This document shows positions 1 through 17,200 of a DNA stretch of 64,000 bases, in pieces; within the stretch, counting starts at the first letter, position 1; every line of letters begins with the position of its first letter. The translations under genes and the position numbers were made by a program. This DNA is from Promethearchaeota archaeon (GTDB lineage Archaea > Asgardarchaeota > Lokiarchaeia > Sigyniarchaeales > SOKP01). Below the pieces are notes generated by a model that ran no database searches, was not told the DNA's origin, and saw only the letters and a list, made by a program, of their open reading frames with translations. Where the stretch lies: assembly GCA_048940925.1 (NCBI GenBank), contig JBHLOC010000002.1:200843-264842 (forward strand), read 5' to 3'.

Positions 1-588
1 CACCTGATCGTGAGTAACATATACCTGAGTAATTTGCAGTTTTCTTTGTAATTTAATAATTTCTCCTCTCATTTGAATACGTAATTTCGCATCTAGATTA
101 CTTAATGGTTCATCAAAAAGAAAAACTGTTGGATAACGCACAATTGATCTCCCTAAAGCAACCCTCTGGCGTTGTCCTCCACTTATTTCCCCAGGCTTTC
201 TGTCTAACAAATGATCGATATCTAAAAGCTTAGCAGCCTCTATTACTCTTCTATTTATCTCGTTTTTATCCATTTTGGATAATTTTAAAGCAAATCCCAT
301 ATTTTCTCGAACATTCATGTGAGGATATAAGGCATAACTCTGAAACACCATCGCAACTTTTCTTTCTTTTGGGGGAATAAAAGTAACATCTACATCGTCA
401 AATAAAACACGTCCATCTGTAACATATTCTAATCCGGCAATAATATTCAGGCAAGTTGATTTACCACAACCAGATGGACCAACAAGCACCATAAATTCTT
501 TATCTTTGATCTCAAGATCTATGTTCTTTAAAACATGGACATCGGGAGCAAAAATTTTATTTACTTTTTCTAATGTTATTCTTACCAT
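1..588 (-). CDS. malK: Sugar ABC transporter ATP-binding subunit (MalK/UgpC family), 3' end beyond window start
   Basis: Manual translation from ATG at 588: [13 protein letters not shown]...GPSGCGKST (Walker A), ISGGQRQR (signature), [11 protein letters not shown] (Walker B), YVTHDQ. Confidence 0.93.
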
Positions 589-605
589 TTTTATAACCAA
601 CTCAT

Positions 606-2630
606 TTAACCTTTTACTGCCCCTCTCGTTAAACCACTAATAATTTTCTTTTGAAATATTAACACGGCTATTACAAGAGGAACAGTTGAAATTGATGTTG
701 CTGCCATTAAAGCTATATCGGTATTCCATCTTGCTGTTAAACTCTGAGGATTCCTTACATATCTCAGTATTGCCCGAGGAACTGTATGATGTGCTGGTGA
801 AGTTAGAAATATTTGTGCAAATAATAATTCATTCCAACTAGCGATGAAAATTAGAATTGCACATGTAAAAATGCCAGGAATAGTTAATGGAAGAATTACC
901 TTACGAAAAATTTGAAAATTACTAGCCCCATCAACTTTAGCTGCTTTCCATAAATCCTCAGGTATTTCATGGAAGAATGCTACTAAAATAAAAACTGCTA
1001 AGGGTAAATTAAATGCAGTATAAGGTAACACTAATCCAAGTAGATTATCACGTAAATCAAGTGGTGGTAAAAATGTGCCAATAAAAATCATTTGTAAGTA
1101 AAACGGTATTATTATAATTAAAGGTGGTAAACTATTCATAGAAAAAATAAAACTATTCAAACCGCTTTTAAAAGGAAAATCAAATTTTGCTATAGCATAG
1201 GCAATAAACGACCCCACCACTATTACAACAATAACTGTGAGTCCTGCTAAAATACTACTATTTAAAAGAGCTCTATCAAAAGTTATTCCATACACCTCTG
1301 CATGAACAAAAATTACTTGATATGCTCTCAATGATGGATAAGCGGGAAATAATTCAAACTGTGTTTGGACTATATAGGGATCTCTGAAAGATCTACTTAC
1401 AATCCAAATAAAAGGTACAGCACAAAATAAACACATCAATATTACAAGAAGCGCAAAGATAATTTTGTGCAGATATCTTCGAATAATAAACATTTTAACT
1501 TTCGATTCTGAAATTGGTTTAAATTCTGTTTTAAATTGCGTAATATCAGAAGATTCTTCCTTATCCTCCTGTTTTAAATCATATTTTTCTTCTAGATCAT
1601 TATTTTTCAATTTTGAATTAGATTTTTCAGTTGTCCCTGTTTCTCTCCTAGTAAAATACACTATAACAAGAGCGAAAATCCCTACAAATACTAAAAGCAT
1701 GACAGAAACTGCAGAAGCTAATCCATAATCACCACTTAACCATAACAAGACTGCATGAGATGTCATTGAATTAACACTTACATCATTAAAGACAACAACA
1801 GCATCATACACTCTAAGAGCTTGCATCATTCGAAATAATAATGCAACTCCAATTCCAGGTTTTATCAATGGCAAAGTAATATATCTAAATTTTTGCCATC
1901 CACTCGCTCCTGCTACTTCTCCTGCTTTGTATAAATCTTCAGGAACAATTTGTAATGCGGCCAAGATTAATAATGTGATAAAGGGAGTAGTTTTCCACAC
2001 ATCAATTATAATTACTGAAAACATAGTTAAAGTAATGGGTATGTCGGTGACGAAAGGAGAATATGGTACAAGACAAGGTAAGAAAAATAATGTTGGAGCA
2101 TCAGCGCCATAAAAGGATACTGGTCGACCGCCAAATAGTATTAAAAGGCTATTAATCAATCCATACTGATCTGCTGAATTGAGGATCTCAAACCTATAAA
2201 GTGTTGCAGAAGCTACCGTAGGTATCGCCCATGGTATTAAAAGTGTTGCTCGGGCAATACTTCTTCCTTTAAATGATTTATTGAGAAGGATTGCAAATAG
2301 TAAACCAAGTAAAAATTCTAAAGTTAGAGAGACAATTGAAAAAAATAGTGTCTGGTAAGTATAACGCCAAAAATCACGTGTATTGTAATTTCCATAGAAA
2401 AGAAGTTCATAATAGTTAGAAAGTGTGAATTGTTGGCCAAAATATTGTCCTCCAGAAGCATTTCTAAAACTAATAAAGATTCCTATAAAAATGGGAAATA
2501 GAATAACGAGTACAAATATCAGTAATGCGGGTAATAAGAGTGAAATAACAAATTTAGTATCTTTCGGGGGCTGCTCTTTATGTTTAAAACTTTCTGGAAT
2601 TTCAAATTCTTGTACCGTCAAAACATCCAT
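606..2630 (-). CDS. Fused sugar ABC permease (MalF-like + MalG-like in one polypeptide)
   Basis: Two EAA-loop motifs ([14 protein letters not shown]; [14 protein letters not shown]) in two TM bundles joined by a charged linker; ends [11 protein letters not shown] like MalG. Confidence 0.92.
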
Positions 2631-2674
2631 AATTACGTACTCTTCTGATAATTAGAATAAATTTATTTAATTAT

Positions 2675-2688
2675 AAAAAAAAAAAAAA
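2675..2688 (-). terminator. U14 tract after the binding-protein gene (probable intra-operon terminator)
   Basis: A14 run on + strand ~16 nt past the stop of 2705..4246; archaeal intrinsic terminators are oligo-U. Confidence 0.5.
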
Positions 2689-2704
2689 GGTTTATATTAA
2701 AATT

Positions 2705-4246
2705 TTACTTGAACTTTTTTCTAGAGATTATAATAATTCCAATGATACTTGCAATTGAAAGTACTATAATAGCTACACTATAACCTGGGATTTGAGTTGG
2801 TGCTCCAGCAACAATTTCTTTTACATCTTTTTGCATTCCTGCTAATTGATCAGCAACACTTTTCCCCGTTAATATAAGGGTAAAATAGTCTCCGATTTTA
2901 TTAGAGATTTCAGGGTATTTAGGTTGAACAGGTCTTGATAAAGTTAACGATGCTTGATCTGTCCAATTTTTAATCCATTCAAATCCACTTGGAGGATTAG
3001 CATATACTGATAATAATGCCGGGAAATTTGCTAATGCCTGTACTCCTGGTGTTTCCTTGTCAGTATCAGCTATAAGTTCTGCTTCTTGAGCTTTCTTATC
3101 CCCAAGATATTTAATAAGATTAACAGCTGCATCTCTTGCATCTCCAGTTGTAGCTTTAGGAATGGCTAAAATGGCACCTCCTACACACGAAGTTTTATAT
3201 CCGGTAACTCCTTCAAAATGAGGTAATGGTGCTACGCCAAAATCCATACCTGCAGTTATAGATCCCCCATAAGCAAAAGGCCATTGTCGCATAAATATTG
3301 CATTACCTGCCAACCATGCTCCTACAGAAGACCCTTCATCATAAGTAAGAGCAGCACGAGGGATGATATAATTATTATAAGCACTATTTGGTGCTCCGCT
3401 AAGCCCGGTTTCATTAAATTGTGTTAAATTACCTTGAACTCCTGTGTATTGAGGTGGAACTAATGCTTGAACAAATTCCATTGCTTTTGTAACTCCTTCT
3501 GTATCAATATTAACGGCTCCTTCACTTGTAACAACATCTAACATGCCGTTACTCCCACACCATTCAAAGAAATTTACTACACCACCTTCATAATTATCGA
3601 ACTGACCAACATATCCTCCGAGATCTCCCTCAGATCTTAGCAACATACCAGAACCATTGTTAAGGATAAAATTAGCTGTTTCATTTAATCCCTCCCAAGT
3701 ACTAAAGTCTGCTTCTGACCATTTTCCAACACCAAAAAATCGATCCATCAAATCTCTTCGATAAAATAAGATCCCAAGATTCATGAAATAAGGATAAGCA
3801 TAAGTCTTTCCTTTATATTGACCAGCAGCAACTATCCCGGAACCATAATCATTTAGTTCTCCACTGGTTAGATATGAATCGAGCGGAATAATCCATCCGT
3901 TAGAAGCAAAAAGAGCTGTCCAGACCACATCTAATCCAATAACATCAGCAGTTGCAGTTCCACCTTGCATCAATGTTTGCAAATTTATTAGCTGATTATC
4001 AGCAGTAGTTCCTGTAGATTTAACTGTTACTGAATTTACTCCTGTACCTAAATCTGAATTCAAGAAATCGTCAGTAACATTTGTAACACCAGGTAATTGT
4101 TGATCTGTGACCCAAATTGTTAAATCGACACCTGCAGAAGGTTTCAAATTTGAGGCTCTAATAGGAAACACAAACATCGCAGTTGAAAATAACATTAAAA
4201 GTCCAAGTAAAGCAACTAAAGCTTTGTGGTTTACATTTTTTCTCAT
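2705..4246 (-). CDS. Sugar (trehalose/maltose-type) ABC substrate-binding protein with Loki-CTERM-like anchor
   Basis: Signal peptide; DVIGLDVVW, LFYRRDL, FMRQWPFAY motifs of trehalose/maltose SBPs; C-terminal IPGY+TM+RKKFK. Confidence 0.88.
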   Translation of the reverse strand: MRKNVNHKALVALLGLLMLFSTAMFVFPIRASNLKPSAGVDLTIWVTDQQLPGVTNVTDDFLNSDLGTGVNSVTVKSTGTTADNQLINLQTLMQGGTATADVIGLDVVWTALFASNGWIIPLDSYLTSGELNDYGSGIVAAGQYKGKTYAYPYFMNLGILFYRRDLMDRFFGVGKWSEADFSTWEGLNETANFILNNGSGMLLRSEGDLGGYVGQFDNYEGGVVNFFEWCGSNGMLDVVTSEGAVNIDTEGVTKAMEFVQALVPPQYTGVQGNLTQFNETGLSGAPNSAYNNYIIPRAALTYDEGSSVGAWLAGNAIFMRQWPFAYGGSITAGMDFGVAPLPHFEGVTGYKTSCVGGAILAIPKATTGDARDAAVNLIKYLGDKKAQEAELIADTDKETPGVQALANFPALLSVYANPPSGFEWIKNWTDQASLTLSRPVQPKYPEISNKIGDYFTLILTGKSVADQLAGMQKDVKEIVAGAPTQIPGYSVAIIVLSIASIIGIIIISRKKFK

Positions 4247-4492
4247 TTTTTAAATTCGACCCAAATTTTTTTGATTTTTGTTAAATTTTTATTTTTTACC
4301 TCTAAATTGGGATAAAAGAGGCAAAAAATTATAGAAAAAGATTATAATTATATTTAAAAACTTTACGCTAAATTTTTAAAAATCTTCGATTTTTCTTTGA
4401 ATTTCTAAACAAAAATGTAATATTAGAAAAGAAATATCAATAAATTAAATGAAAACATATTAAAATAAAATAAATATGGTTGAAATTAAAAA

Positions 4493-5701
4493 TTGAATGC
4501 AAACTCTATTTTAGATCAATATCTTAAATTATTAGGAAATAACGTTATAAAAAGAATTAAGAAAAAAGGAAAAGAATTTGAAAACCATAAAGTTTTCCAT
4601 GTAAATGCTACCAAGTTTGGAGGAGGGGTAGCTGAGATCTTACATAATATGATTCCATTAATGCAAGAATTAAAAATTGATGTGGATTGGAAAGTCTTTA
4701 CTGCCCCTGATAGTTTTTTTGAAATATCCAAGCGAATGCATAATGCATTACAGGGTAATATGGATATTAAATTTTCTAATGAAGAGATTTCCTCATATAT
4801 TTCCCAGGCTAAATCTTCATATGAACAAATACAGCCTGATGGTGATTTTATAATAATGCATGACCCTCAACCATGTCCTATTATTAAATTTGCAGAAAAG
4901 AGAATAGGAAAATGGATATGGCGGTGTCATATTGATACTTCTAACCCAAATCCTCAAGCATGGGGAATTATTTCAAAATATCTTCCATTATATGATGCTC
5001 TCATTTTTACTAAGAAAGAATTTGCCAAAGAAGATATAACCACACCTATATTTCAAATAACACCTTCAATTAACCCATTTTCGAATAAAAATAAACATAT
5101 AGAAGAAAATGAAGCAAAAGAGATTGTGCAGAAATTTGTTCCCTTAGATTTGCCTCTTATTACTCAAGTTTCCCGATTTGATCCATGGAAGGATCCTTTA
5201 GGTGTAATCGAAGTCTATAAAAAAGTTAGTGAAAAAATACCAATTCGTTTAGCATTGATAGGTAGCTTAGCTCATGACGATCCAGAAGGCATAAAGTGGT
5301 TAGAACAACTAAAAAATTATGCAGGTGATGATCCAAATATTCATATATTATCAAATTTAGATGGGGTTGCAGATTTGGAAGTAAATGCGTTCCAACTAAT
5401 TTCTAGTATCATATTGCAAAAATCTATTAGAGAGGGCTTTGGCCTCACTGTCACTGAAGCACTCTGGAAAGGCACACCTGTGATTGGAGGAAACGTTGGA
5501 GGGATTAAACTACAGATTGAGAATGGGGTCAATGGTTTCCTAGTAGATACAATCGAGGAAGCGACAGAAAAGGTCCTTTATTTGTTAAAAAATCCCAAAA
5601 AAGCAAAAGAAATGGGTCAAAATGGTTATGAAAAAGTAAAAAATGAATTTTTATTAATTCACCATGTAGAAAAATATTTAGATCTTTTTAAAAGCATCTA
5701 A
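4493..5701 (+). CDS. treT: Trehalose glycosyltransferring synthase (GT4)
   Basis: HVNATKFGGGVAEIL, HDPQP, WRCHID, SRFDPWKD, EGFGLTVTEALWK motifs; next to a trehalose/maltose ABC operon. Confidence 0.88.
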   Translation: MNANSILDQYLKLLGNNVIKRIKKKGKEFENHKVFHVNATKFGGGVAEILHNMIPLMQELKIDVDWKVFTAPDSFFEISKRMHNALQGNMDIKFSNEEISSYISQAKSSYEQIQPDGDFIIMHDPQPCPIIKFAEKRIGKWIWRCHIDTSNPNPQAWGIISKYLPLYDALIFTKKEFAKEDITTPIFQITPSINPFSNKNKHIEENEAKEIVQKFVPLDLPLITQVSRFDPWKDPLGVIEVYKKVSEKIPIRLALIGSLAHDDPEGIKWLEQLKNYAGDDPNIHILSNLDGVADLEVNAFQLISSIILQKSIREGFGLTVTEALWKGTPVIGGNVGGIKLQIENGVNGFLVDTIEEATEKVLYLLKNPKKAKEMGQNGYEKVKNEFLLIHHVEKYLDLFKSI

Positions 5702-5737
5702 TACTTAGCAAATTGATATAGAATTAGTGAATTTAAA

Positions 5738-6871
5738 TTGAAAGCGCCCGAGAGAGTGTTAACTACTATTAAACACAAGGAACCTGATAAAGTTCCTGCG
5801 TTTGAAAGTGCTTTTACAAATAATAAAATAATGAAACATTACGGGCTTACTCCAAGAGAACAGGATACTAATCTCTTCCAAGAGATTTTAGAAAAGAAGC
5901 AAAATTTCAAGAAATGCTATTTGACTTCTCATGAACTTTTCTGTAAAATTGGTATCGATATTATAACAACTCTTTCTAGTCTTTTCCCACTTAAAAAGCT
6001 AAAAAAAGGAGAGGGATTTATTGATGAGTATGGAAGAATAATGAAATATGAATACTATAAAGATAATACAGTTATTTTAGGTTACTATGGTGGAGTTTTT
6101 AATAATTTTGAAGATTATGAGAGTTGGGAAAAACCTGAGCCAAATTGGGAACCAAGAATTAATAGTTTTTTAGCAGGAAGAGAAATTCAAAAGGATTTAA
6201 AAGATAATGTTTTTTCTATTCCATCAACAGGAGCTTTAATGGAAGATGTATGGCAGGGCTTCGGACTAGAAACATTCTCAAAAATTCTAGCAAGACCAAA
6301 GCAGGCAAAAAAACTTTTTGATGAATATGGGGGCTTTACTCTTGAACTTGTCAAAATTTTAGCAGAGCTAGATGCCCAAATAGTATTACTTTTAGATGAT
6401 TATGGTTATAAAAATGGATTATTTATGAAACCCTATTATTTTCATAAATATGTTTTTCCTTGGTTAAAGCGAATATGTGATGTTGCTCATAAACGTGATT
6501 GTAAAATAATGCTTCACTCTGATGGGGATTTATTGGAAATTTTTGAAGATATTATTAATTGTGGAGTTGATGTTATTAATCCTATCGAACCCACAACAGC
6601 AAACCCAGATTATGATATTTTCAAATTAAAAAGAAAATACGGAGATCAAATTACTTTCGCGGGTAATTTAAGTCCAATGATGTTAGCAACAGGAACGATT
6701 GATGAAATAGAGATCTATGCTAAAAAACTAATAAAAGAATTAGCACCTGGAGGAGGATATATTTTTAGTAGTGGTCACTCAATAAATCCTGCTATAACAG
6801 TAGATCGATTTGAAGCAATGCAAAATATTAGAAGAGAGTATGGAATATATCCTATTAATATTCCTGATTAA
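5738..6871 (+). CDS. Uroporphyrinogen decarboxylase / MtaA-CmuA family protein
   Basis: ERV..TIKHKEPDKVP start, DDYG, LHSDG, GGGYIFSSGHSI. Confidence 0.8.
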   Translation: MKAPERVLTTIKHKEPDKVPAFESAFTNNKIMKHYGLTPREQDTNLFQEILEKKQNFKKCYLTSHELFCKIGIDIITTLSSLFPLKKLKKGEGFIDEYGRIMKYEYYKDNTVILGYYGGVFNNFEDYESWEKPEPNWEPRINSFLAGREIQKDLKDNVFSIPSTGALMEDVWQGFGLETFSKILARPKQAKKLFDEYGGFTLELVKILAELDAQIVLLLDDYGYKNGLFMKPYYFHKYVFPWLKRICDVAHKRDCKIMLHSDGDLLEIFEDIINCGVDVINPIEPTTANPDYDIFKLKRKYGDQITFAGNLSPMMLATGTIDEIEIYAKKLIKELAPGGGYIFSSGHSINPAITVDRFEAMQNIRREYGIYPINIPD

Positions 6872-6884
6872 TATTTTAAATAAA

Positions 6885-7057
6885 AACTGTTTTCTAGTGG
6901 ATACAATCGAAAAAGTTATAAAAAAAGTATTTTATTTATTATGTCATCCAAAAATTGCTGAAAAAAGGGTAAAAAAGGAGTTTAAAAAGTAAAAAAAGAA
7001 TTTCTATTAATAATCTATGTAGAAAATTATTTAGTTTTGTCCATATACTTGTCAAAT
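6885..7057 (+). repeat. Degenerate direct copy of the treT 3' end (original ~5531-5713)
   Basis: NCFLVDTIEKVIKKVFYLL.HPK vs treT NGFLVDTIEEATEKVLYLL.NPK; DNA similarity continues through aaaaagtaaaaaa.gaattt.tattaat, atgtagaaaa.tatttag and atactt..caaat. Confidence 0.8.
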
Positions 7058-7129
7058 CCTAATTAATACACCTTCTAATAAAAAATACTTATTATTTGAT
7101 ATATTATTCTTTCGTGCTTAGGATAAAAA

Positions 7130-7384
7130 TTAATGTCGTTTTTTACGATAAAAGAACAACATCTCTGCAAGGAACATGAAAATTAAGGTGAATATTAGGC
7201 TAGTAATTATACCATATATCCAACTAAATTCTACTGAATAATTCAAATTCATTCTATAAACATTGTAAAAACCCAAAAATGAAAAATAGAAAACTAGGAT
7301 ACTGATGAGTATTAACCTTTTAAGACCTGTCTTTAGGTAACCAGCAAAATCGCTAAAAAATTCTTTAAATTCCATAAATATCAA
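7130..7384 (-). CDS. Small two-TM membrane protein
   Basis: Two hydrophobic segments, basic C-terminus. Confidence 0.6.
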   Translation of the reverse strand: MIFMEFKEFFSDFAGYLKTGLKRLILISILVFYFSFLGFYNVYRMNLNYSVEFSWIYGIITSLIFTLIFMFLAEMLFFYRKKRH

Positions 7385-7585
7385 ATCTTAATCATTTATT
7401 TTTAATATTCAAATGTAGAATAATTATGTAAATATAATAACAGAATTATTTTTAAATCTCTCTACCTATGATGTGGATGTAATTTAACTCTATTTATTAT
7501 AGATTATAAACTTTATATAATAAAGAACATATTTTTGCTTGTTTAAATTCATAATTGATTATTTCAAAAATATGAGGAAATTTAT

Positions 7586-9136
7586 ATGAATCTTAAAGAA
7601 CTAGTAGAAACTCAGGCAGAAACGTATAAAGATAAAACATTTTTATATTGGGAAGATAAAACTGTTTCTTACTCTCAATTGAATGAGCTTACAAATAAAG
7701 TAGCTAATTTTTTATATGAATTAGGAATCAGAAAAGGAGATAAAGTAAGTGTTTACCTCCCAAATATGCCTGAATATGTATATCTTTATCTAGGTATTCC
7801 TAAAATCGGTGCGATTACTGGTCCTGTAAACGCACTGTTTAAAACTCGAGAGGTAAAATTTGTAGTAGGGCATTCAGAAGCAAAAGTTTTGATCACAATC
7901 CCAAATTTTATGGATTTAGTAAATGAAATTAAAAGTGATCTACCTAATTTGAAACACATCATAGTAATCGGAGAACCTATGGAGCATACATTAAATTTTT
8001 GGGAATTAATGGATAAAGCTTCAACAAATACTCCTCCTGAAGTGATTATTAATGAAAGAGAGGATCCCGCGGCAATTATCTATACATCAGGAACCACAGG
8101 ATTTCCTAAAGGAGTATTACAAACCCACTTTAACATCAGGAGAAATGGTGAAATGATTCAAGAGTTTTTAAAAGCGAGAGAAGATTTTCGATTTATGTTA
8201 ATTTTACCACTTTTCCATGTTAATGCTCAAGTTGTAACAGTCATGGCGCCTTTAACTATCGGAGCTAGTTGTATATTAACTCCTGGATTCTCAGCTCAAA
8301 CACACTGGGAAATTGTAGCAAAATATAAAGCATCTACGTTTAGTGCAGTGCCAACAGTGCTTTCTATATTACTTAGAATGCCACATGAAAATCTCGATCT
8401 TTCTTCATTAGAATTTGTTATTTGTGGGGCGGCTCCTTTACCTGTGGAGGTGTTCAGGGAATTTGAGAATACATTTAATTGTAAAGTTATAGAAGGGTAT
8501 GGTCTTACAGAGGGCACATGCGCTTCTTCAGTTAACCCTTTGCCTACTGAAACAGAAGATAGACGAAAAATTGGTAGTATCGGCTTACCTCTCCCTGGGA
8601 ATGAAATGAAAATTGTAGACGATAAAGGTAATGATGTTCCCCCTAACACTAAAGGTGAAATTGTGATTAAAGGTGATAATATTATGAAAGAATATTTTAA
8701 AAATCCAGAAGCAAATGCTGAGACTCTCAAGGATGGCTGGTTATATACAGGCGATATTGGACATATGGATGAAGACGGATTTTTTTATATCACAGATCGT
8801 AAAAAAGATATGATCATTCGAGGTGGAGAAAATATATATCCTAGAGAAATAGAAGAAGTGCTTTATGCTCATCCTGATGTGTCATTAGCAACTGTTATTG
8901 GGGTACGAGATGAGATCTATGGAGAACTTCCCAAAGCATTTATAGTATTAAAAGAAAGAAAATCTCTAACTACCGATGATATTATTGAACATTGTAAGAA
9001 AAATCTCGCTAATTTTAAAGTTCCAAAGTATGTAGAGTTTAGGAATGATCTTCCTAAGACACCGACAGGGAAGATAATGAAACAACCTCTCCGAGAAGAA
9101 GAAGAAGAAAAAACTGGAAAGATCTTTAATTCTTAA
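7586..9136 (+). CDS. Long-chain acyl-CoA synthetase (AMP-binding)
   Basis: YTSGTTGFPKG, EGYGLTE, TGDIG, PKTPTGKI motifs. Confidence 0.93.
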   Translation: MNLKELVETQAETYKDKTFLYWEDKTVSYSQLNELTNKVANFLYELGIRKGDKVSVYLPNMPEYVYLYLGIPKIGAITGPVNALFKTREVKFVVGHSEAKVLITIPNFMDLVNEIKSDLPNLKHIIVIGEPMEHTLNFWELMDKASTNTPPEVIINEREDPAAIIYTSGTTGFPKGVLQTHFNIRRNGEMIQEFLKAREDFRFMLILPLFHVNAQVVTVMAPLTIGASCILTPGFSAQTHWEIVAKYKASTFSAVPTVLSILLRMPHENLDLSSLEFVICGAAPLPVEVFREFENTFNCKVIEGYGLTEGTCASSVNPLPTETEDRRKIGSIGLPLPGNEMKIVDDKGNDVPPNTKGEIVIKGDNIMKEYFKNPEANAETLKDGWLYTGDIGHMDEDGFFYITDRKKDMIIRGGENIYPREIEEVLYAHPDVSLATVIGVRDEIYGELPKAFIVLKERKSLTTDDIIEHCKKNLANFKVPKYVEFRNDLPKTPTGKIMKQPLREEEEEKTGKIFNS

Positions 9137-9340
9137 TCTTTTTCAAATTTTACTATTTTTTTTTAGATTAGATTTCAATAATTAGAGAATTTATAAAAAA
9201 CCTGCATTCCAATATGAATATTTAAAAGCTTAGTTTTATATTTAAATTCAAAAGAAATTCAATATTAACATATTTTAAATTAAGATATGCATTAAATATA
9301 TTACAAAAATTAATCTAATGTCATTAGGAGCTGTGTTAAA

Positions 9341-11020
9341 ATTATAAAAAAGAGAACGATTTTAATTGTAGTTTTCGCAATAACATCTGTTATTGTTCAG
9401 TTATTTGGAATTCCATATTTAGGTATTAAATCTACATCTCATGACCTTGAATTCGAATATGTCTATAATTGGGACTTAACAGGAACAGGAGGATGGTACG
9501 ACGGATATAAAGAGACTTTTAGAGCAAAAGGACATTACACTATTGATTTTAATGGGAATTTTGCGAATGTAACTGCTCGCGTTTCATGGAAATTTTCTGA
9601 AAACTATTATGGTTCTTCCCAAAAAAGCGTAGATACTTATGAGTTTTCATATTCGCTAGATAATGGTGCGTATATATGGGGAACTGACCAAGATGTCCTT
9701 AACACAACTAATATGAATGTTTGGTTTCATATTCCTGGAGGGATTAAAGCTCCTCAATATGATATTCTCGATACTTCATATAAAGTAATCAGTGGAGAAC
9801 ATCTTATTTGGGTTGGATATTTAATGCCTTTTAGTGGAAAGAAACTTCATAGTGAGGGCCAATATTTTCGAGATGATGAGCTTGGGAAATTTGATGCTAA
9901 ATATAGAGTAGATAATTTCTTTACGAAAAATGGTTATTTAATTGGAGAGATTTATACAGAAACAGATGATGGTTACGATAGAGACACGGGAGATTGGTCC
10001 GAATTTAAATTGAATTCCTATGTCTTCATTACATCTTCTAGTTATCTAAGACCTTTTAATTTTGGAATGTACTTTTTAGCATACTGGGGACCTATATTAT
10101 TTTTTATGATTCTTTTTTACGTAGTATATGAAAACCTCCGCTGGAAATCAAGGATAATTCCCAAAGGAGATATAGAAATTGTTGTTGAAAGAAATCTTCC
10201 TAACTTTGTGAAATTTGAAATACAATCTGCTTATTCAGAAATGATACCATCCTATTTAGTTAGAGCAAGATCTCATGATAAGAGAATTATTAGTGCTCAT
10301 AAAAATGGAGTAGTAGAAGGAATAGGATTTATTGAACCAAATGGGAAAATCGGTACATTTTATGGTAACTACATCTGGGATATGATAAACTATACAAAAG
10401 TAAAATACGCATTCACTGAAATTGGAAGGAATTTAAAAGGTTTTCGCACAATCGAAAAATATAATATCCTTGAAATTAATAATCTCCAGCAAAGAGATTT
10501 AAGTTTTGACACTGCTCATATTAAACCTGTTGAGGAGAAACATCTAGATGCCATCATGAAAATGGTCGCAAATGAAGATAGAGGTAAAAAAAGCAAGAAA
10601 TATGCAAAATGGGTTTCTAAATCTTATGAGGATGATATCGCAGTTATAGCTACTGCTTCAAGCACAGAAACATGGGTTCAGTCTATAATGTCGGATTTAT
10701 ATCAGAGTAAATATCCTAAACCAGAATCTATAGCTAATGAAATAATATTGGGTGTAGGTTTTACTACTCCTGGAGAAGAAACTGGATGGTTATATGGACT
10801 TTACGTCCATCCTGCTTTTAGAAATCATGGGCTAGGGAGAACACTTGTATTAGCCCGACTTTCAGCGCTCAAGGAAATAGGATGTATACGAGCAATTACA
10901 GAAATTGCTGAATGGAATAGTCCTGCTAAAAAGATATATGATGATTATAATGCTCAAATAGTAGGTACAATATATCTTTTAGGTAAAAAGATGCCAAAAG
11001 TTAAGGTGAGACACTACTGA
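9341..11020 (+). CDS. Membrane-anchored protein with putative extracellular domain and cytoplasmic GNAT acetyltransferase
   Basis: Frame is open from 9314; N-terminal hydrophobic segment TILIVVFAITSVIVQLFGI lies upstream of the tracked ATG (9713); second TM FGMYFLAYWGPILFFMILFYVV; GNAT motif A LYVHPAFRNHGLG. Start codon uncertain. Confidence 0.75.
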   Translation: MIKKRTILIVVFAITSVIVQLFGIPYLGIKSTSHDLEFEYVYNWDLTGTGGWYDGYKETFRAKGHYTIDFNGNFANVTARVSWKFSENYYGSSQKSVDTYEFSYSLDNGAYIWGTDQDVLNTTNMNVWFHIPGGIKAPQYDILDTSYKVISGEHLIWVGYLMPFSGKKLHSEGQYFRDDELGKFDAKYRVDNFFTKNGYLIGEIYTETDDGYDRDTGDWSEFKLNSYVFITSSSYLRPFNFGMYFLAYWGPILFFMILFYVVYENLRWKSRIIPKGDIEIVVERNLPNFVKFEIQSAYSEMIPSYLVRARSHDKRIISAHKNGVVEGIGFIEPNGKIGTFYGNYIWDMINYTKVKYAFTEIGRNLKGFRTIEKYNILEINNLQQRDLSFDTAHIKPVEEKHLDAIMKMVANEDRGKKSKKYAKWVSKSYEDDIAVIATASSTETWVQSIMSDLYQSKYPKPESIANEIILGVGFTTPGEETGWLYGLYVHPAFRNHGLGRTLVLARLSALKEIGCIRAITEIAEWNSPAKKIYDDYNAQIVGTIYLLGKKMPKVKVRHY

Positions 11021-12225
11021 ATGAAAATGTAACTTACCATTCACTTTATCATCAAAAATTACTAAATTCTGTTAATTTTAATTTATTCAAGATTGAACCT
11101 GAGGCGATTGAGATTAATAAGCAATTTAAATTACCGGAGGAATGGTATTCTGCCTATTTAGGACCAGCTACTGCTGAATTTCATGGATTAACTCATAAAT
11201 CTCAACCAGCACTTAGAGACGAAAATAGAAATGCAATTATCCCAGAATATTTTATTGAGATTGGAGGAAAAATTATCTATTTATCAGTGAAAGGGTGTGG
11301 AGCTTATGAGGATATGTTTTTTGGAGGAAAATTAAACCAGAGCAAAATAAAAAATGCATGTCGAGATTCAAAACATCTAGCTAAAATTGAGACATTATCT
11401 ACGAGTCTAGGTTTCATAATGGGAGAGTCTTGGATGGGTGAAAGTCCATATGGTGCCCAAGGTTTTATAAACGGATATGATGAGCTTAAATTTTCTAGAA
11501 TTGCCGAATTGGATAATATTAACGGAGCTTATATATGCCCCTCAATAGCAGTTATTAAGCTACCAAAAGAAATTGAAAAAGTGGCTAGAAAATTCTTTTG
11601 GTTTAGAACATATAAAGATCATTTTTATCAAGTTCTGCGCCTAGTTCCATCAAATATACGTTTGTATTTTGAATCATCTCACAATATTGCTAATCCAAGT
11701 CCAGTTTTTCAGTTATTCGAGATTGACACTATAGAAAGAGCAGAAAATTTTGAATTGAATTTTATAAAAAGTGGAATCGCACTTTTAACACTTTATACAC
11801 GATCAGCAATAATAGAAGGAAATGAAATTAAGGGTATTTATTATCAAGATGTATGGTTAGATAAAGACTGTGTAGTAGCACCGAATGGAATAATTCATTT
11901 TGCAGATATTGAAGGATTTATTTGGAAAAAAGTGACTATTGATGAATATAAAGAGATTCAGAAAAAAGAATGGCAGAAATTAGTATATGAGTTTCTATAT
12001 GCATTGGTTCAAATCGATTCTTATCGCCATTCATTGGACGAACGTCAAATTTCTTGGGAACGACAAAGAGAAGAACTAGAAATCCTTATTTATGAAGCTT
12101 TAAATAAAGATTTTTTTACTAATGTAGAAAATATTAATGGAAATTTAACTATCATAATAGAGGGCAAAGATTTACCCTCCATTGAAATGCCAATACTAGA
12201 AAAGGTGATCAAGTTTGATATGTGA
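11017..12225 (+). CDS. Uncharacterised protein with SelO/protein-kinase-like motif order
   Basis: Frame open from 11005; GGTGA then CTG overlapping the previous TGA; motifs SVKGCG, VLRLVPSNIRL, LDKDC...HFADIEG. Confidence 0.55.
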   Translation: MNENVTYHSLYHQKLLNSVNFNLFKIEPEAIEINKQFKLPEEWYSAYLGPATAEFHGLTHKSQPALRDENRNAIIPEYFIEIGGKIIYLSVKGCGAYEDMFFGGKLNQSKIKNACRDSKHLAKIETLSTSLGFIMGESWMGESPYGAQGFINGYDELKFSRIAELDNINGAYICPSIAVIKLPKEIEKVARKFFWFRTYKDHFYQVLRLVPSNIRLYFESSHNIANPSPVFQLFEIDTIERAENFELNFIKSGIALLTLYTRSAIIEGNEIKGIYYQDVWLDKDCVVAPNGIIHFADIEGFIWKKVTIDEYKEIQKKEWQKLVYEFLYALVQIDSYRHSLDERQISWERQREELEILIYEALNKDFFTNVENINGNLTIIIEGKDLPSIEMPILEKVIKFDM

Positions 12226-13726
12226 GAGAGCTTTAGAGATATTAAGTTCTATAAAAGATAAACATAATCTTATGACTTCATTTGAAGAGATTTCTGAATT
12301 AAAAGAAAACAATTTGATTTCAGAATTCAAAGCTAATATCCCCAAGACGTCAAGAGATTATGACTTAACTAGTCTAAAAAGAAAGTATGTGAAGTTATCT
12401 AATGATATAAGACAAGCTTATCAAAATTTAGTAACATTAGAGGGTGATTTTAATCATGTATCAACGTTGTCCCGCTTTTTTTCTTATCTAAAAATGGGAA
12501 GAGGAGCAACACTAAAAAAAGATATATCTGATTTACATCAATTCATCGAAAATAAAGAAGCTGATCTGAAAAAATTGAAAAATGAACTGTTAAAACTTAA
12601 TAGAGAAATTGAATCTCATGAAAGAGCAGTTAAGGTAAATGGTATTAGAGTTTTTCTTACCCCCATAGGTGAGACAATTATTGATGAAATAAAAGCTCGA
12701 AGGAGATTCTATACTCGAGAATTAAAAGAGCTAATTATTGTATTAAAGAATTTAGATGATACATTCACCATGCTTATCGACAATATTGGTACTATTATGA
12801 GAACAAATAATTTCTCACCCATATGGGCGTTATATCTTCTTAATACAAATATGCTAAATCTATCTAAAATTCTGAATATAATTACGCTACGTGAACGTAA
12901 TTATAATAACGCACAAAAAAGAATGATGAATTTATCATTTTTTCTCATGAATCATCCAGAAATAATGATTCCAAGGAATAATCGTGAAGCAAAGATTACT
13001 GAGAATGAATTTAAATATACGTATCCCGAAAACGAATATAAAAGAATGTTTCATGAAATCCTTAATAATGCAAATATATCAACTTATAAAATAAGAACAG
13101 CTATCTCGTTATTGGGTAAATTTTTCACAATATGGGGTTCAAAAAATGAGGTAAATAGAAATATTATTAAGCAATATTATGAAAATCTTAGAATCTTCAT
13201 AGATTTTCAAAGAGATTTACCAATGATCGGAAAGAAGACAATTCTTTATCAGCATTTAAAGCAAAATATTGATGAGGAAATGATATTTGTCTTGTTAATT
13301 TTAGCTTTTTCCACTAAATTGGATTCTTATAATTATTTCTACGAAATTATTGAAGATATACCTGAAGGTACGAAATTTTTTTCAGCAATCTCCTCATTAT
13401 TCCCATGGGACCCTGAAGAGACATGGAGAGTATTATTGCGCGCACAATCAAACATACTAAAAGCTCAAAGTGCAAAATTTATTCCAGAATTAATGGAATA
13501 TGCTATTCTAATGTGTTTAAATCCCAATGTATTATTAATAGAAAATAATATCTCACAAGAGCAACTGGCTAAATGGAAATTTTTAATAAATCCTGTTATA
13601 CATCTTAGCATATACTCTTTCTTCGAACAAGATTTAGAAACTTACATAAGGAGAAGACCTTTAGCATATATTATAGCACCAATGTATTATCATCATTCTA
13701 TGCTTCATTACCACTCTATAGGTTAA
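12215..13726 (+). CDS. Uncharacterised coiled-coil/helical protein
   Basis: GGTGA 6 nt before TTG, overlaps upstream gene; heptad-rich residues ~50-140. Confidence 0.75.
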   Translation: MICERALEILSSIKDKHNLMTSFEEISELKENNLISEFKANIPKTSRDYDLTSLKRKYVKLSNDIRQAYQNLVTLEGDFNHVSTLSRFFSYLKMGRGATLKKDISDLHQFIENKEADLKKLKNELLKLNREIESHERAVKVNGIRVFLTPIGETIIDEIKARRRFYTRELKELIIVLKNLDDTFTMLIDNIGTIMRTNNFSPIWALYLLNTNMLNLSKILNIITLRERNYNNAQKRMMNLSFFLMNHPEIMIPRNNREAKITENEFKYTYPENEYKRMFHEILNNANISTYKIRTAISLLGKFFTIWGSKNEVNRNIIKQYYENLRIFIDFQRDLPMIGKKTILYQHLKQNIDEEMIFVLLILAFSTKLDSYNYFYEIIEDIPEGTKFFSAISSLFPWDPEETWRVLLRAQSNILKAQSAKFIPELMEYAILMCLNPNVLLIENNISQEQLAKWKFLINPVIHLSIYSFFEQDLETYIRRRPLAYIIAPMYYHHSMLHYHSIG

Positions 13727-13823: not shown

Positions 13824-15494
13824 CTATTCAATCAACCTTAAATAGTCACTATTAATTGAAGTAGCTAAGGAATCATAGAAAAAAGAATAATATTTTTGAT
13901 AGAAATCTTTCTTTTGTTTCAAAATGATTGAGCTCTCATCTTTTTCTATGATACCCTTTGTCCAAAGAATCTTACCTTGATGTGACAAATCTAACCTATC
14001 TCGATTTTTTATAATTTCACCAGATTTTATAACATATTCAATATCTTTTAATGAATTTTTTATTACTTCATACTGTTTAGCTGTATCGATATTATTAAGA
14101 TCGATATCTAAAATATTGATATCAGCATCAGCACCAATACCCAAATTTCCTTTTATATTTCCTAAACCAAGAGATTTAGCTGGACTAGCTCGACTTAAAA
14201 TAATAAATTCGTAAAACGATAAAATATTATTTGATTCTGATAAAAACTCTTTGAATTTAAAACTTCTCGTCATGTCTTTCATAAATTTTATTCTAGCATC
14301 ACTACTTAACAACCATGTAGCAACTTCCGCAATATCATTTATATTCCCATAATTTGGATAGTTAAGAGATAGTTGAACTTTCCACTTATCTTTAATATTT
14401 AGAGCAAGACCTATTCCATTTGCCCACATTAAGCAATGATTTTCATTATTCTTATCAAAATTCCTAAATTTTACAAATGAATCCCCTTCAAATTCTACAG
14501 CAGATCTAATTAGTATATTATGTTCGTTTTCAAATTTTAATTCTTTTGCAATTAACTTTCTATCAGACGTGATCAAGGGATTAATTTTATTAAATGTAAG
14601 AAATCCAATATCTAGGTCTATTTTATTGGATTGATTGATAATATTAATTAGTTCAGCATTATCCTCCTCGATAATATATGCAGAAGCATGAGCAAGATGA
14701 AAAATTTGGGATCTTGGATTTTTAGATTTTTCCTTTAATTGGGGAACTTTGTCTAAAGAATTTATTTTGTCTAGTATAAGGGAATAATTACCTTTTGCAT
14801 ACTCGGTCTCATAACCTTCAATATGAGCATGAATTGAATGCGGTAATCCCATATGTTCATTAGCTTTTGCTAAGTTTTCATAAACATCTAGAGCTGAGAA
14901 ATTGTAGAGTCGACCTGAGGCTTTGAGATCATTTCTTATCTCTTTAAAGTTCCAATCTTCAGACTCAAAAGGATTATAGACTTTAAGACCAAAAGCTTTA
15001 GTTTTTTGCATTAAATCAGATAAAAATATACTTAACTCATCTATTTTCCCTCTCTGAAACTCTAATTCTAAAGCCCAAAAATTACTGACATTTAATAACA
15101 TCCCCTTATCAAGAACAGGTAAATGGGTAAAGTCAAATAATGTTTGTTTTGATAAGGAGGGGAAAACATTCGCTTCAAGAATAAAAGTGTAACCATTATT
15201 TATATAATCCCGAGCTATTTTTTCAAGTGTTAGACCCTGCCATATTTTTTTAAATAAGGAATTTTTTGTTCCGATTAGTCTAACCCAATTTACTTGTTGA
15301 GATGCAATATGAGTATGAATATCCAATGCACCAGGAATAACTGTTTTACCTTGAGCATCTATTTCTTTTACATCACTTGGATTAGAAAATTTTTCGACAA
15401 TAAATTCGCCCTCAATTAGTATATCCTTCTTTTCACCCTCAATATTGTTAAGAGGATCAAATACCAATCCATTCTTAATAATTAATTTAGACAT
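13824..15494 (-). CDS. fwdA: Formylmethanofuran dehydrogenase subunit A-like amidohydrolase (divergent)
   Basis: IIKNGLVFDPLN, DIHTHIA, KVYNP, PHSIHAH, PAKSLGL, GADADI. Confidence 0.8.
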   Translation of the reverse strand: MSKLIIKNGLVFDPLNNIEGEKKDILIEGEFIVEKFSNPSDVKEIDAQGKTVIPGALDIHTHIASQQVNWVRLIGTKNSLFKKIWQGLTLEKIARDYINNGYTFILEANVFPSLSKQTLFDFTHLPVLDKGMLLNVSNFWALELEFQRGKIDELSIFLSDLMQKTKAFGLKVYNPFESEDWNFKEIRNDLKASGRLYNFSALDVYENLAKANEHMGLPHSIHAHIEGYETEYAKGNYSLILDKINSLDKVPQLKEKSKNPRSQIFHLAHASAYIIEEDNAELINIINQSNKIDLDIGFLTFNKINPLITSDRKLIAKELKFENEHNILIRSAVEFEGDSFVKFRNFDKNNENHCLMWANGIGLALNIKDKWKVQLSLNYPNYGNINDIAEVATWLLSSDARIKFMKDMTRSFKFKEFLSESNNILSFYEFIILSRASPAKSLGLGNIKGNLGIGADADINILDIDLNNIDTAKQYEVIKNSLKDIEYVIKSGEIIKNRDRLDLSHQGKILWTKGIIEKDESSIILKQKKDFYQKYYSFFYDSLATSINSDYLRLIE

Positions 15495-15511
15495 TTTTAA
15501 ACTTAGTTTGT

Positions 15512-15886
15512 TTATGTTACCTTAATTGAACTTATAATATCTTCAAAACTTAATATCGGTTCTTGGGTTAATTCCACATTTACTTCAATATTTTTAAAAA
15601 TTAATTCACCATTTTCAACACCTGTAATTTGATTAGACCAGATTGATACTGGCATTATAATAATCCCATTTGGAACATCTTCTTTCTGTCTAACATTTAC
15701 TGTAATCTGACCGAATTTACTACTCAATTTTACATTTGATTTCTCTGTTAATTTTAATTTTTCCATATCTCTGGGATTAAATAAACCTATTGCCAAATTT
15801 TCTTTGAGGGAATCATTATCTCCAGCCATAAATTCCCTTAATTGATCATAATCAACCATTCTTACAGTATTTACAATCATTTTCAT
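15512..15886 (-). CDS. fwdD: Formylmethanofuran dehydrogenase subunit D-like (molybdopterin dinucleotide-binding fold, divergent)
   Basis: NPRDMEKL, SKFGQITV, GIIIMP..IWSN; lies between fwdA- and fwdB-like genes. Confidence 0.72.
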   Translation of the reverse strand: MKMIVNTVRMVDYDQLREFMAGDNDSLKENLAIGLFNPRDMEKLKLTEKSNVKLSSKFGQITVNVRQKEDVPNGIIIMPVSIWSNQITGVENGELIFKNIEVNVELTQEPILSFEDIISSIKVT

Positions 15887-15901
15887 CTAAAACACTACTT
15901 T

Positions 15902-17200
15902 TTATGACTTTTTTATTTCTTCTAATAGTAAGGTCAATATCTCTTCATCAGTCTTAACATTACTTGGCGCATTTATAACTTTCTTTAATTCAATAGGGAT
16001 ATGATCTAATCTATAAGCTAATCCCGAACATTCTATACCTGTAATTGCCGATGGTAATATCACATCAGCTATTTGAGAGGTAGCAGATTTCTTATTATCT
16101 ATCAAAATTAATGGTTTTGCAGCTAATTTTTTACTCAATTGGATTGGTAAATGCGAAATTGGATCAGTCCCTACAATTAACGAACTATCAAAATCTTCAT
16201 TCTTGACTTTTGCGATAACATTATCTGAGGTCTCTGAAAGTTTGTTGTTAATAAATTGTAAACTATTATTTTTCCCATAACTTGATAATGCGACATGTTC
16301 GAATCCTGCCATGTTATAATGCCCACCCAGCATAACGACTGAAATGCGACCTTTTTGTTGTTTTTCATTAATTATCTGAACCAGTTCTAATAATGCATGG
16401 ATTACACTGGAACCTGATTGAGTTTTTAATATTCCTTGTCCTATAAAAATAACTCCATATTCTGATCCAGTTAGATGAAGTAATATCCTTTTTAAATCAT
16501 TAGTATCTATACCTGCAACGCTATGTTCTGGAATACTTCCTTCAGTACAACATTCCTCCTTTAAAACTTTGATTAATTCAATATCTTTTCCTGGCTCAAT
16601 ATTTAAAGCAATATCTCTGACACCCATGACACCGAAAGAAGCTGTTTTCATTGGATCCAAAGCTATTAACGTTTTTATTTCTCTTCCTGTCATTCTAAAC
16701 TTACCACGCGAAAATAGAACCTTATTTAGTAGACGTGGAATTGATTCAGCGACATTTGCACCCCACAAAATTAATAAATCTGCTTTATTTATGAGTTCAG
16801 TGATTGTTGTTAAAGTAATCCCTGTTTCTTTTGCAGTATCTAATACTTTTCCTTGACATATAGTAGAATTTGAATCAATAAAGCCATTTATAAGCTTTGC
16901 CAATTTAATTCCTTCAAATTGTGCTTCACAACTACTCGTTGAGAATCCATATAATACTGGATTGGTTGATTGTTTAAGAATATCAACAGTTTTATCGATT
17001 GCCTCATCCCAAGAGCTTTTTTCTAATTTTCCATTTTTACGAACCATGGGTGATAATATACGATTTTTTGCTGTAACTTGATCAAATCTTTCTTTTCCTT
17101 TTAAACATGCTCCTACAACCTCATCAATATATAGTCCATCGCTTCTTATAATTATATCATCACATAATAAAGAACAACCTGAACAAGGTATTCTTTTCAT
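15902..17200 (-). CDS. fwdB: Formylmethanofuran dehydrogenase subunit B-like (divergent)
   Basis: CSGCSLLCDD..ACLKG Fe-S motif, ADLLILWGAN, GHYNMAG, GIECSGLAYRLD. Confidence 0.82.
   Translation of the reverse strand: MKRIPCSGCSLLCDDIIIRSDGLYIDEVVGACLKGKERFDQVTAKNRILSPMVRKNGKLEKSSWDEAIDKTVDILKQSTNPVLYGFSTSSCEAQFEGIKLAKLINGFIDSNSTICQGKVLDTAKETGITLTTITELINKADLLILWGANVAESIPRLLNKVLFSRGKFRMTGREIKTLIALDPMKTASFGVMGVRDIALNIEPGKDIELIKVLKEECCTEGSIPEHSVAGIDTNDLKRILLHLTGSEYGVIFIGQGILKTQSGSSVIHALLELVQIINEKQQKGRISVVMLGGHYNMAGFEHVALSSYGKNNSLQFINNKLSETSDNVIAKVKNEDFDSSLIVGTDPISHLPIQLSKKLAAKPLILIDNKKSATSQIADVILPSAITGIECSGLAYRLDHIPIELKKVINAPSNVKTDEEILTLLLEEIKKS

Follow-up and report, generated by a model that had tools for sequence, protein, structure and literature searches.

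In the SelO (YdiU) family of kinase-fold enzymes, a lysine and two arginines (Arg176 and Arg183) hold the γ-phosphate of an ATP molecule that is bound upside down, and AMP instead of phosphate is transferred (PMC8097203). Canonical SelO is rare in archaea, occurring in three of 107 archaeal genomes (PMC3281104). In microcin clusters, the SelO-like MchC/MceJ and the acyltransferase MchD/MceI form a complex that attaches a moiety to the C-terminal region of the cluster-encoded microcin precursor, with the individual roles of MchC/MceJ and MchD/MceI being stated as unknown (PMC3281104, PMC7472721). The locus described in this article is a three-gene module at positions 9341-13726 of a 64,000-nucleotide stretch of contig JBHLOC010000002.1 of a Promethearchaeota archaeon, a Loki-type member of the Asgard group. 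This whole stretch is termed the window, all coordinates are positions within it, and the window genome comprises 4.8 Mb in 90 contigs. The module encodes a membrane-anchored acyltransferase of the GNAT family (gene 1), a SelO-like kinase-fold enzyme (gene 2), and a soluble helical protein with a nearly invariant C-terminal tail (gene 3).

Gene structure, folds, motifs, strict co-inheritance, and the behavior as a cassette are established for this system. With chances that we place a little short of even, it would be a dedicated protein-modification module, in which the two enzymes act on the tail of gene 3. What is presented is a well-supported, uncharacterized module rather than a demonstrated mechanism.

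Organization of the locus

Three frames on the + strand are open over 9314-11020, 11005-12225, and 12209-13726. The triad is bounded upstream by a gene that resembles acyl-CoA synthetases (7586-9136) and downstream by an FwdA-like gene in convergent orientation (13824-15494), and homologues are found in source records named Lokiarchaeota or Promethearchaeota. The genes and their internal ribosome-binding sites are the following:

Gene 1, 9341-11020, + strand: 559-residue membrane-anchored GNAT; start at ATT 9341 or ATA 9344, with AGGAG at 9327-9331
Gene 2, 11017-12225, + strand: 402-residue SelO-like kinase-fold enzyme; CTG start
Gene 3, 12215-13726, + strand: 503-residue soluble helical protein; TTG start; putative substrate or effector
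GGTGA, 11005-11009, + strand: ribosome-binding site for gene 2, within the end of gene 1
GGTGA, 12204-12208, + strand: ribosome-binding site for gene 3, within the end of gene 2

Genes 1 and 2 meet in a CTGA junction, wherein the stop codon TGA (11018-11020) overlaps the start codon CTG (11017-11019). The stop codon of gene 2 (12223-12225) lies 11 nucleotides inside gene 3, which starts with TTG at 12215. The sequence AAGGTGAG before gene 2 and (A/T)GGTGA ahead of gene 3 are retained in nearly all orthologous loci; by itself, the AGGTGA hexamer is not rare, with 28 occurrences in the window compared with ~22 expected. The overlapping stop/start junctions together with the conserved GGTGA sites thus indicate that the three genes are translationally coupled. 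An earlier note on this DNA had described three overlapping and coupled genes with GGTGA sites at both junctions, and the overlaps and both sites were found as it had put them.

The C-terminal residues of gene 1, K-V-K-V-R-x-Y/F/H (10996-11017), are conserved family-wide, and the site at which ribosomes bind for gene 2, AAGGTGAG, lies within their codons. At this position, the protein sequence and the signal for translation may each restrict how far the other can change.

When open reading frames (ORFs) are called with ATG, GTG, and TTG starts only, gene 1 is shortened to 9713 and gene 2 to 11287. The homologues of gene 1 (17-19 orthologous loci), however, start with M-(R/K)-K-R-T-I-L at the ATA codon of the window at 9344. 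The ATT at 9341, directly before this ATA, lies 9 nucleotides after AGGAG and is retained in the three closest loci; the start-codon pairs in relatives are ATT-ATA and ATT-TTA. The homologues of gene 2 start with methionine at the CTG of the window at 11017, the codon being ATG, TTG, or CTG by locus (CTG in the window and two other loci, TTG in four others), and this start overlaps the gene 1 stop as YTGA throughout the orthologous loci. The TTG start of gene 3 at 12215 is ATG in most relatives. The ratio of nonsynonymous to synonymous substitution rates (dN/dS) is ~0.15 over the whole length of each of the three genes. In the stretches 5' of the first canonical starts of genes 1 and 2, it amounts to 0.13-0.17 against the two nearest relatives, with 0.16-0.17 for the N-terminal 124 codons of gene 1. 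These values argue that the upstream parts are translated and that the starts are truly noncanonical, namely ATT/ATA for gene 1 and CTG for gene 2, as read from conservation. Together with the starts of the homologues, they also confirm the gene boundaries of the earlier note. A reading of the absent canonical starts as marks of pseudogenes was rejected: the frames are intact, relatives use the same noncanonical codons, and dN/dS is 0.13-0.17.

Standard gene callers shorten the proteins of genes 1 and 2, and several public records carry forms of 435, 483, and 312 residues.

The kinase-fold enzyme of gene 2

Homologues of gene 2 have ~400 residues and align with a coverage of 97-99%. No Pfam (E ≤1), NCBIfam, or PADLOC model matches the protein. 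The AlphaFold2 (AF2) model, built from a 74-sequence alignment, has a predicted local distance difference test (pLDDT) score of 94.1 and a predicted template modeling (pTM) score of 0.92. In a Foldseek search against the PDB, SelO/YdiU comes first (E 1.2e-4 to 1e-3, probability 0.87-0.99). With VIA-align on the Foldseek top 1000, SelO/YdiU reaches Z 14.2-15.5 at a root mean square deviation (rmsd) of ~4 over 257-268 residues; the nonribosomal peptide synthetase-independent siderophore (NIS) synthetases are next with Z 13.1-10 (AcsD 13.1), and Ser/Thr kinases lie at ~10. The exhaustive VIA-align search over 48,161 chains gives the same order: SelO of P. syringae with Z 15.5 (rmsd 4.0, 263 residues), NIS synthetases with 11.9-10.2 (SbnC 11.9, AsbB 11.2, IucA 10.2), and Ser/Thr kinases with at most 9.6. 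Hence, the SelO/kinase-like character that had been proposed for gene 2 from its sequence is now a confident kinase-like fold, for which both structural methods rank SelO/YdiU at the top.

The active-site motifs of gene 2 are distributed as follows:

11290-11301, + strand: K92-G-C-G motif, equivalent to the β3 lysine of SelO K107-G-A-G
11638-11661, + strand: R208-L-V-P-S-N-I-R215, equivalent to SelO R170-V-A-P-S-H-L-R177, the γ-phosphate arginines
11848-11916, + strand: catalytic-loop/metal-loop region, Y-Q-D278-V-W-L-D282-K-D284 ... F-A-D297-I-E-G

K92, G93, and G95 show no variation in the 74-sequence alignment and little or none in the extended set. Also invariant among the 74 sequences are R208, P211, S212, and R215 and, in the loop region, W280, D282, K283, D284, D297, and G300; D278 is at least 90% conserved. 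R71 is also invariant in the family, and D284 and D297 are retained across the extended superfamily. R71, K92-G-x-G, R208-x-x-P-S-x-x-R215, D282-K-D284, and D297-x-x-G occur in the same order as R87, K107-G-A-G, R170-x-x-P-S-x-x-R177, D246-N247, and D256 of SelO. The first three of these motifs have nearly the spacing of SelO, and the 7-residue spacing of R-x-x-P-S-x-x-R is identical, in a register taken from a statistically weak hhalign alignment that was used for motif register only. The catalytic loop reads D282-K-D284 where SelO has T-D-N, with D297-I-E-G at the DFG position; the register of D278, D282, and D284 against D246 and N247 of SelO is ambiguous. By retaining the lysine and arginines that hold the γ-phosphate in SelO, gene 2 is probably an ATP-using enzyme that works by adenylyl transfer.

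That gene 2 might instead be an inert pseudokinase that scaffolds the GNAT and gene 3 is suggested by its atypical catalytic loop and by the lack of a sequence-level match to any active kinase family. The invariant K92, R208, R215, D284, and D297 are, however, the nucleotide- and metal-binding positions of the kinase fold, and the invariant residues persist in superfamily members of <20% identity. Such invariance is the pattern of an active site and not of a scaffold, which makes an inert gene 2 very unlikely.

A second reading is small-molecule chemistry. Herein, gene 2 would be an NIS-like adenylate-forming ligase or an APH-like phosphotransferase; its substrate, shared with the GNAT, would be a metabolite, lipid, or xenobiotic (cf. 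IucA/IucB, DfoC, and AAC/APH), and gene 3 would be a scaffold. The rank of the NIS synthetases as the second-best structural group (270-292 residues in the exhaustive search) fits this, as does DfoC, an NIS synthetase that is itself fused to an acetyltransferase, and an acyl-CoA synthetase-like gene lies just upstream of the triad. That synthetase, however, remains in congeners without the cassette; SelO stands 2.4-3.6 Z units above the best NIS synthetase; IucA/IucC Pfam models do not match; and no hydroxylase, exporter, or other biosynthetic genes accompany the triad in 20 loci. In addition, such chemistry offers no role for an always co-inherited 500-residue protein with an invariant tail. 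We regard it as quite unlikely.

The gene 2 family is small, with 135 cluster representatives at E ≤0.001 among 1.84 billion proteins. Ten weaker relatives from the 1.8-billion-protein search belong to no Pfam family and, hence, form no bridge to a named family.

The helical protein of gene 3

Gene 3 has 93 homologues, most of them 487-503 residues long and aligned with 100% coverage. It matches no Pfam or NCBIfam family above cut-off and contains no transmembrane segment by hydropathy. Its AF2 model (pLDDT 83.9) comprises the following parts:

Residues 1-161: N-terminal α/β domain, a small helix/strand domain split by a coiled-coil hairpin
12344-12625, + strand: coiled-coil hairpin, residues 44-137 (DSSP of the model)
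12722-13630, + strand: all-helical domain, residues 170-472, which holds the loop A-Q-S-A-K-F-I-P-E (417-425)
13631-13723, + strand: flexible C-terminal tail, residues 473-503, ending in S-M-L-H-Y-H-S-I-G-COOH

The earlier note had taken gene 3 for a long helical coiled-coil protein. Helical it is, but the coiled coil is confined to residues 44-137, and the most conserved feature is the flexible tail with its H-x-H...G end. With a pLDDT <50, the tail is the least confident part of the model, yet it is nearly invariant and among the most conserved parts of gene 3; H498 within it is one of just four invariant columns of the protein. Its consensus is ...R-R-R-P-L-A-Y-I-I-x-P-R-Y-Y-x-x-S-x-L-H-Y-H-x-I-G-COOH. 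The loop A-Q-S-A-K-F-I-P-E is likewise conserved and of low model confidence. The H-x-H...G end is retained in the distant operons L001, L002, L004, L104, L113, and L114, where gene 3 ends as follows:

L001: ...SSLHHHSIG, following a Tyr/Arg/Gly-rich insert
L002: ...HPLHVHYVPWFG
L004: ...HPVHTHYIYG
L104: ...HPAHVHGLGGFTG
L113: ...HPMHMHTVPYFG
L114: ...HPGHFHGGMG

A disordered, terminal, and invariant motif on a variable linker is what would be expected where a chain end docks into a partner, either as a substrate or as a regulator.

The gene 3 homologues at L001:9343-11106 and L114:6377-7978 carry a long low-complexity insert rich in Tyr, Arg, Gly, and Ser directly before the H-x-H...G end, which gives the impression of a tail on a flexible tether.

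Fold searches return little for gene 3. Foldseek against the PDB yields nothing at E ≤0.001. In the exhaustive VIA-align search, only the hairpin is matched, by generic hairpins at Z ~10.8, and the helical domain has no significant fold match. The Atlas shape search finds unnamed archaeal proteins only (template modeling score 0.36-0.47), and the Atlas feature search gives no usable match.

The membrane-anchored GNAT of gene 1

The homologues of gene 1 have ~557 residues at 100% coverage and begin with MRKRTIL at the ATA codon. The protein is built as follows:

9350-9427, + strand: first transmembrane helix, residues 4-29, preceded by KKR; Kyte-Doolittle window score 2.54
9428-10060, + strand: ectodomain, residues 30-240, 211 residues, aromatic-rich, with the sequons NVT and NTT
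10061-10132, + strand: second transmembrane helix, residues 241-264, followed by RWKSR; by hydropathy and conserved in the alignment
10193-10510, + strand: conserved cytoplasmic pre-GNAT subdomain, ~residues 285-390, aligned in all versions including the soluble 253-residue GNAT of L104
10514-11017, + strand: GNAT domain with an intact R-x-x-G-x-G acyl-CoA motif (FRNHGLG)

The ectodomain contains 19.9% W+Y+F compared with 10.8% in the cytoplasmic part and is conserved from the Loki-type through the distant versions. The GNAT is the only domain of gene 1 recognized by Pfam: PF00583 matches residues 472-533 with 38.8 bits (cut-off 20.7), and PF13508 matches with 28.2 (cut-off 27). Assignment to the GNAT family follows from PF00583 above its cut-off together with the R/Q-x-x-G-x-G/A acyl-CoA motif. 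The motifs LYVHPAFRNxGIG and TEIAEWNxPA are retained in every version of the family, and the GNAT is apparently an active acyltransferase. Hydropathy, aromatic content, and PF00583 thus reproduce the order of transmembrane helix, ~200-residue aromatic-rich domain, second helix, and C-terminal GNAT that the earlier note had given. With KKR before the first helix and RWKSR after the second, the positive-inside rule places the ectodomain outside and the GNAT inside the cell; we infer that the former is extracellular and the latter cytoplasmic.

The order of transmembrane helix, ectodomain, transmembrane helix, and enzyme is receptor-like, which raises transmembrane signaling as an alternative. 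The ectodomain would sense an external ligand and switch the GNAT and the kinase-fold enzyme, and the modified gene 3 would be an output regulator that binds, for example, DNA via a winged-helix-like N-terminal domain. The N terminus of gene 3 is indeed a small helix/strand domain, into which the coiled coil is inserted; this domain has no winged-helix or DNA-binding match in the fold searches, which probe single domains of a 503-residue model poorly. Where the ectodomain is split off, it remains in the cluster and carries a cytoplasmic zinc ribbon (L104). Against this stand the lack of any recognized ligand-binding family for the ectodomain (none in Pfam; in the Atlas feature search, values of up to 0.80, which is chance level) and the lack of conserved target genes that adjoin the cassette beyond lineage synteny. 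Signaling of this kind appears unlikely.

Distribution and co-inheritance

Of 301 sampled Asgard genomes, 21 contain the gene 2 family; these belong to two families within a single order. Among the other genomes of the genus of the window, only four of 22 have it. In all 18 Asgard genomes with a fetched gene 2 locus, gene 1 lies directly upstream and gene 3 directly downstream. The order of the triad is also retained in L002, L004 (a Thermoplasmatota metagenome-assembled genome), L113, and L114, at identities of only 23-36% for genes 1 and 2. Hence, the genes do co-occur elsewhere, a point on which the earlier note had let its reading depend, both in the Asgard loci (18/18) and in distant archaeal versions.

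In L104, gene 1 is split in two, and both parts lie beside the kinase-fold gene and a gene 3 homologue, for which hhalign gives a probability of 89% across the N-terminal 180 residues. The ectodomain protein is 28% identical to the window ectodomain (E 1e-9), signal-anchored, and equipped with a cytoplasmic zinc ribbon, and the GNAT is a soluble protein of 253 residues. The fusion of ectodomain and GNAT in one gene, as the earlier note had described it, does not extend to L104, though there the separate genes share a cluster. An ectodomain that is split off but stays clustered supports a functional link.

The ectodomain protein of L104 (L104:8300-9328, 342 residues) consists of an N-terminal anchor, a Ser/Thr-rich stalk, a transmembrane segment, a Pro-rich linker, and a CxxC...CxxC zinc ribbon that replaces the GNAT.

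In the congeners G171 and G008, the acyl-CoA synthetase and FwdA-like genes are adjacent, ~330 bp apart, and the triad is exactly missing. This precise absence between the same flanking genes argues that the triad was gained or lost as one unit. The upstream gene (7586-9136) bears the AMP-binding motif YTSGTTGFPKG and is 86% identical in congeners without the triad; as it is present there, it is not part of the cassette. On the other side (13824-17200, - strand), the FwdA-like gene (556 residues), a 124-residue gene, and a 432-residue gene are convergent to gene 3. The FwdA-like gene lies beside the triad in nine of 20 loci and the 124-residue gene in six of 20, and both also occur without the triad, which looks like lineage synteny and not like a part of the module. 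The recurrence of the FwdA-like neighbors (9/20) fits vertical descent with repeated loss. The module is, hence, a patchy accessory cassette and not a core Asgard system.

A reading of the cassette as a mobile element was rejected. No meaningful direct or inverted repeats flank it, no integrase or mobility genes are among its neighbors, and the junction alignment with cassette-free congeners contains no target duplication.

The patchy spread (21/301 Asgard genomes, 4/22 others in the genus) and the precise presence or absence between the same flanking genes would also suit a conflict or defense cassette, which would detect events at the envelope, for instance the attachment of a virus, and respond with a protein modification that is toxic or protective. 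GNATs and kinase-fold or AMPylating enzymes are known as bacterial toxins. PADLOC-DB 2.0, however, has no family that matches any of the three proteins at E ≤1; flanking repeats, an integrase, and other marks of mobile elements are missing; and the same downstream neighbors in 9/20 loci fit vertical descent with loss. We assign this reading a low probability.

L115 is not counted as the same module. At this locus (L115:2526-7602), a more distant member of the kinase-fold superfamily (E 5e-20 to the family profile) lies downstream of two M16 peptidase genes and upstream of an unrelated 456-residue protein that lacks the tail; the same enzyme fold may serve a different system here.

Proposed function of the module

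As a protein-modification module, the system would work in the following way. Gene 1 would provide a catalytically competent GNAT on the cytoplasmic side of the membrane, with an extracellular domain on the other side. Gene 2 would bind ATP in the manner of SelO and transfer AMP, or activate a group by adenylylation, rather than carry out a classical kinase reaction. Gene 3 would be the dedicated partner, whose tail (H-x-H...G-COOH), and possibly also the A-Q-S-A-K-F-I-P-E loop, is offered to both enzymes and covalently modified by them at the membrane. The chemistry might be AMPylation, with a Tyr, Ser, or His side chain of the tail as the acceptor, or the activation of the carboxylate of the terminal glycine; both are plausible, given the structural kinship of gene 2 with SelO as well as with the carboxylate-adenylating NIS synthetases. 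We infer in this way the substrate role of gene 3, the modified residue, the chemistry, and the role of the ectodomain, which may regulate the enzymes or only localize them.

Several points weigh against this proposal. The link between gene 2 and SelO is one of structure and motifs only: hhalign of gene 2 against an 81-sequence SelO alignment gives a probability of 0.5-5%, and against SelO of Escherichia coli alone no match; the PF02696 (SelO) hidden Markov model does not match gene 2 at E ≤1; and when PDB sequences were searched with the family and extended alignments as profiles, no relative was returned, the sole row being a chance coiled coil at E 0.2. Gene 2 may perform a classical kinase reaction, with Y-Q-D278 resembling an HRD-type loop. 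The GNAT may have an entirely different target for acetylation, and gene 3 might, by virtue of its N-terminal domain, be a regulator and not a substrate. The predicted complex of gene 2 and gene 3 reaches a score of 0.56 (best control 0.00), with at least 37% of contacts agreeing between runs and a partner pLDDT of at least 74. The mark for this score is reached by 58 of 80 solved complexes and two of 110 mismatched pairs, and among scores of up to 0.60 that reach it are only seven of the 80 solved complexes but both mismatches. The prediction is thus weak support and gives no placement of the tail in the active site.

If the carboxylate of the terminal glycine were the target, a further step can be imagined by analogy. 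Gene 2 would adenylate the C terminus of gene 3, much as carboxylates are adenylated by NIS synthetases and probably by MceJ. The GNAT-fold partner would then pass the protein, once activated, to an amine or hydroxyl group at the membrane. Asgard and other archaea would thereby possess a system of protein C-terminal conjugation (tagging) built on a SelO-like fold and not on an E1 enzyme. This is a speculative extension to which we give little credence.

The module is not described in Pfam, NCBIfam, PADLOC, or the searchable paper library, which agrees with the earlier note, to whose author no description was known. It is composed of known superfamilies in a new arrangement, with two of its families unnamed. 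It adds a new, small, and sequence-isolated SelO-like family to a type of enzyme that has altered the view of what the kinase fold can do, and it pairs this family, unusually, with a membrane-spanning acetyltransferase. In addition, it comes with a built-in candidate substrate, whose conserved tail opens the chemistry to direct testing. A modified tail would mean that the archaea most closely related to eukaryotes have a new pathway of post-translational modification, and C-terminal activation as the chemistry would mean a new route to protein conjugation.

Comparison with known systems

Both Foldseek and VIA-align rank SelO/YdiU (PF02696; PDB 6EAC, 6LNA, and 6K20) first among the structural matches of gene 2. 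Common to both are the kinase-like fold, K-G-x-G after β3, R-x-x-P-S-x-x-R, an arginine ~20 residues before the lysine, and an aspartate at the DFG position. In contrast to SelO, gene 2 has a ~45-residue insertion after K-G-x-G and the catalytic loop D-K-D in place of T-D-N, and the identity in structural alignments is 9-12%. The C-terminal region of SelO past ~residue 353 is without counterpart in gene 2 (402 compared with 478 residues). Canonical SelO was not found in the 301 Asgard genomes; PF02696 is silent in the window genome and has matches in four of 14 control genomes. To our knowledge, SelO does not occur in an operon with a GNAT and a dedicated tail-bearing protein.

The NIS synthetases (IucA/IucC family: AcsD, SbnC, AsbB, DesD, and DfoC) are the second-best structural group and cover nearly the whole of gene 2 (Z 10-13, 270-297 residues). 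They use ATP by adenylyl transfer and have GNAT acyltransferase partners in their pathways. However, they score below SelO and are larger, with 550-600 residues and extra N-terminal domains compared with the 402 residues of gene 2, which neither matches the IucA/IucC Pfam family nor lies in the context of a siderophore pathway.

In sensor-fused protein acetyltransferases, a GNAT is likewise fused to a putative regulatory or sensing module, a likeness that concerns the architecture only. Unlike in these, the added domain of gene 1 is extracellular, and a membrane helix lies between it and the GNAT.

Differences from the microcin-modifying complex concern the acyltransferase, the substrate, and the neighboring genes. 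The acyltransferase of the module is a classical acyl-CoA GNAT (PF00583), which is membrane-anchored and bears an ectodomain, whereas MchD/MceI belongs to the HlyC family (PF02794), which is not among the Pfam matches of the triad at E ≤1. The putative substrate of the module is a cytoplasmic protein of 500 residues with an H-x-H...G end, whereas the microcin is a small, secreted, Ser/Gly-rich peptide. Siderophore, glycosyltransferase, and ABC-exporter genes are not among the conserved neighbors of the 20 loci. By analogy, MceJ/MceI nevertheless appears to be the closest functional precedent for the module, as both systems combine a SelO-like enzyme (gene 2 and MchC being compared by description only), an acyltransferase, and a polypeptide whose C-terminal region is the modification site in the microcin and the putative one in gene 3.

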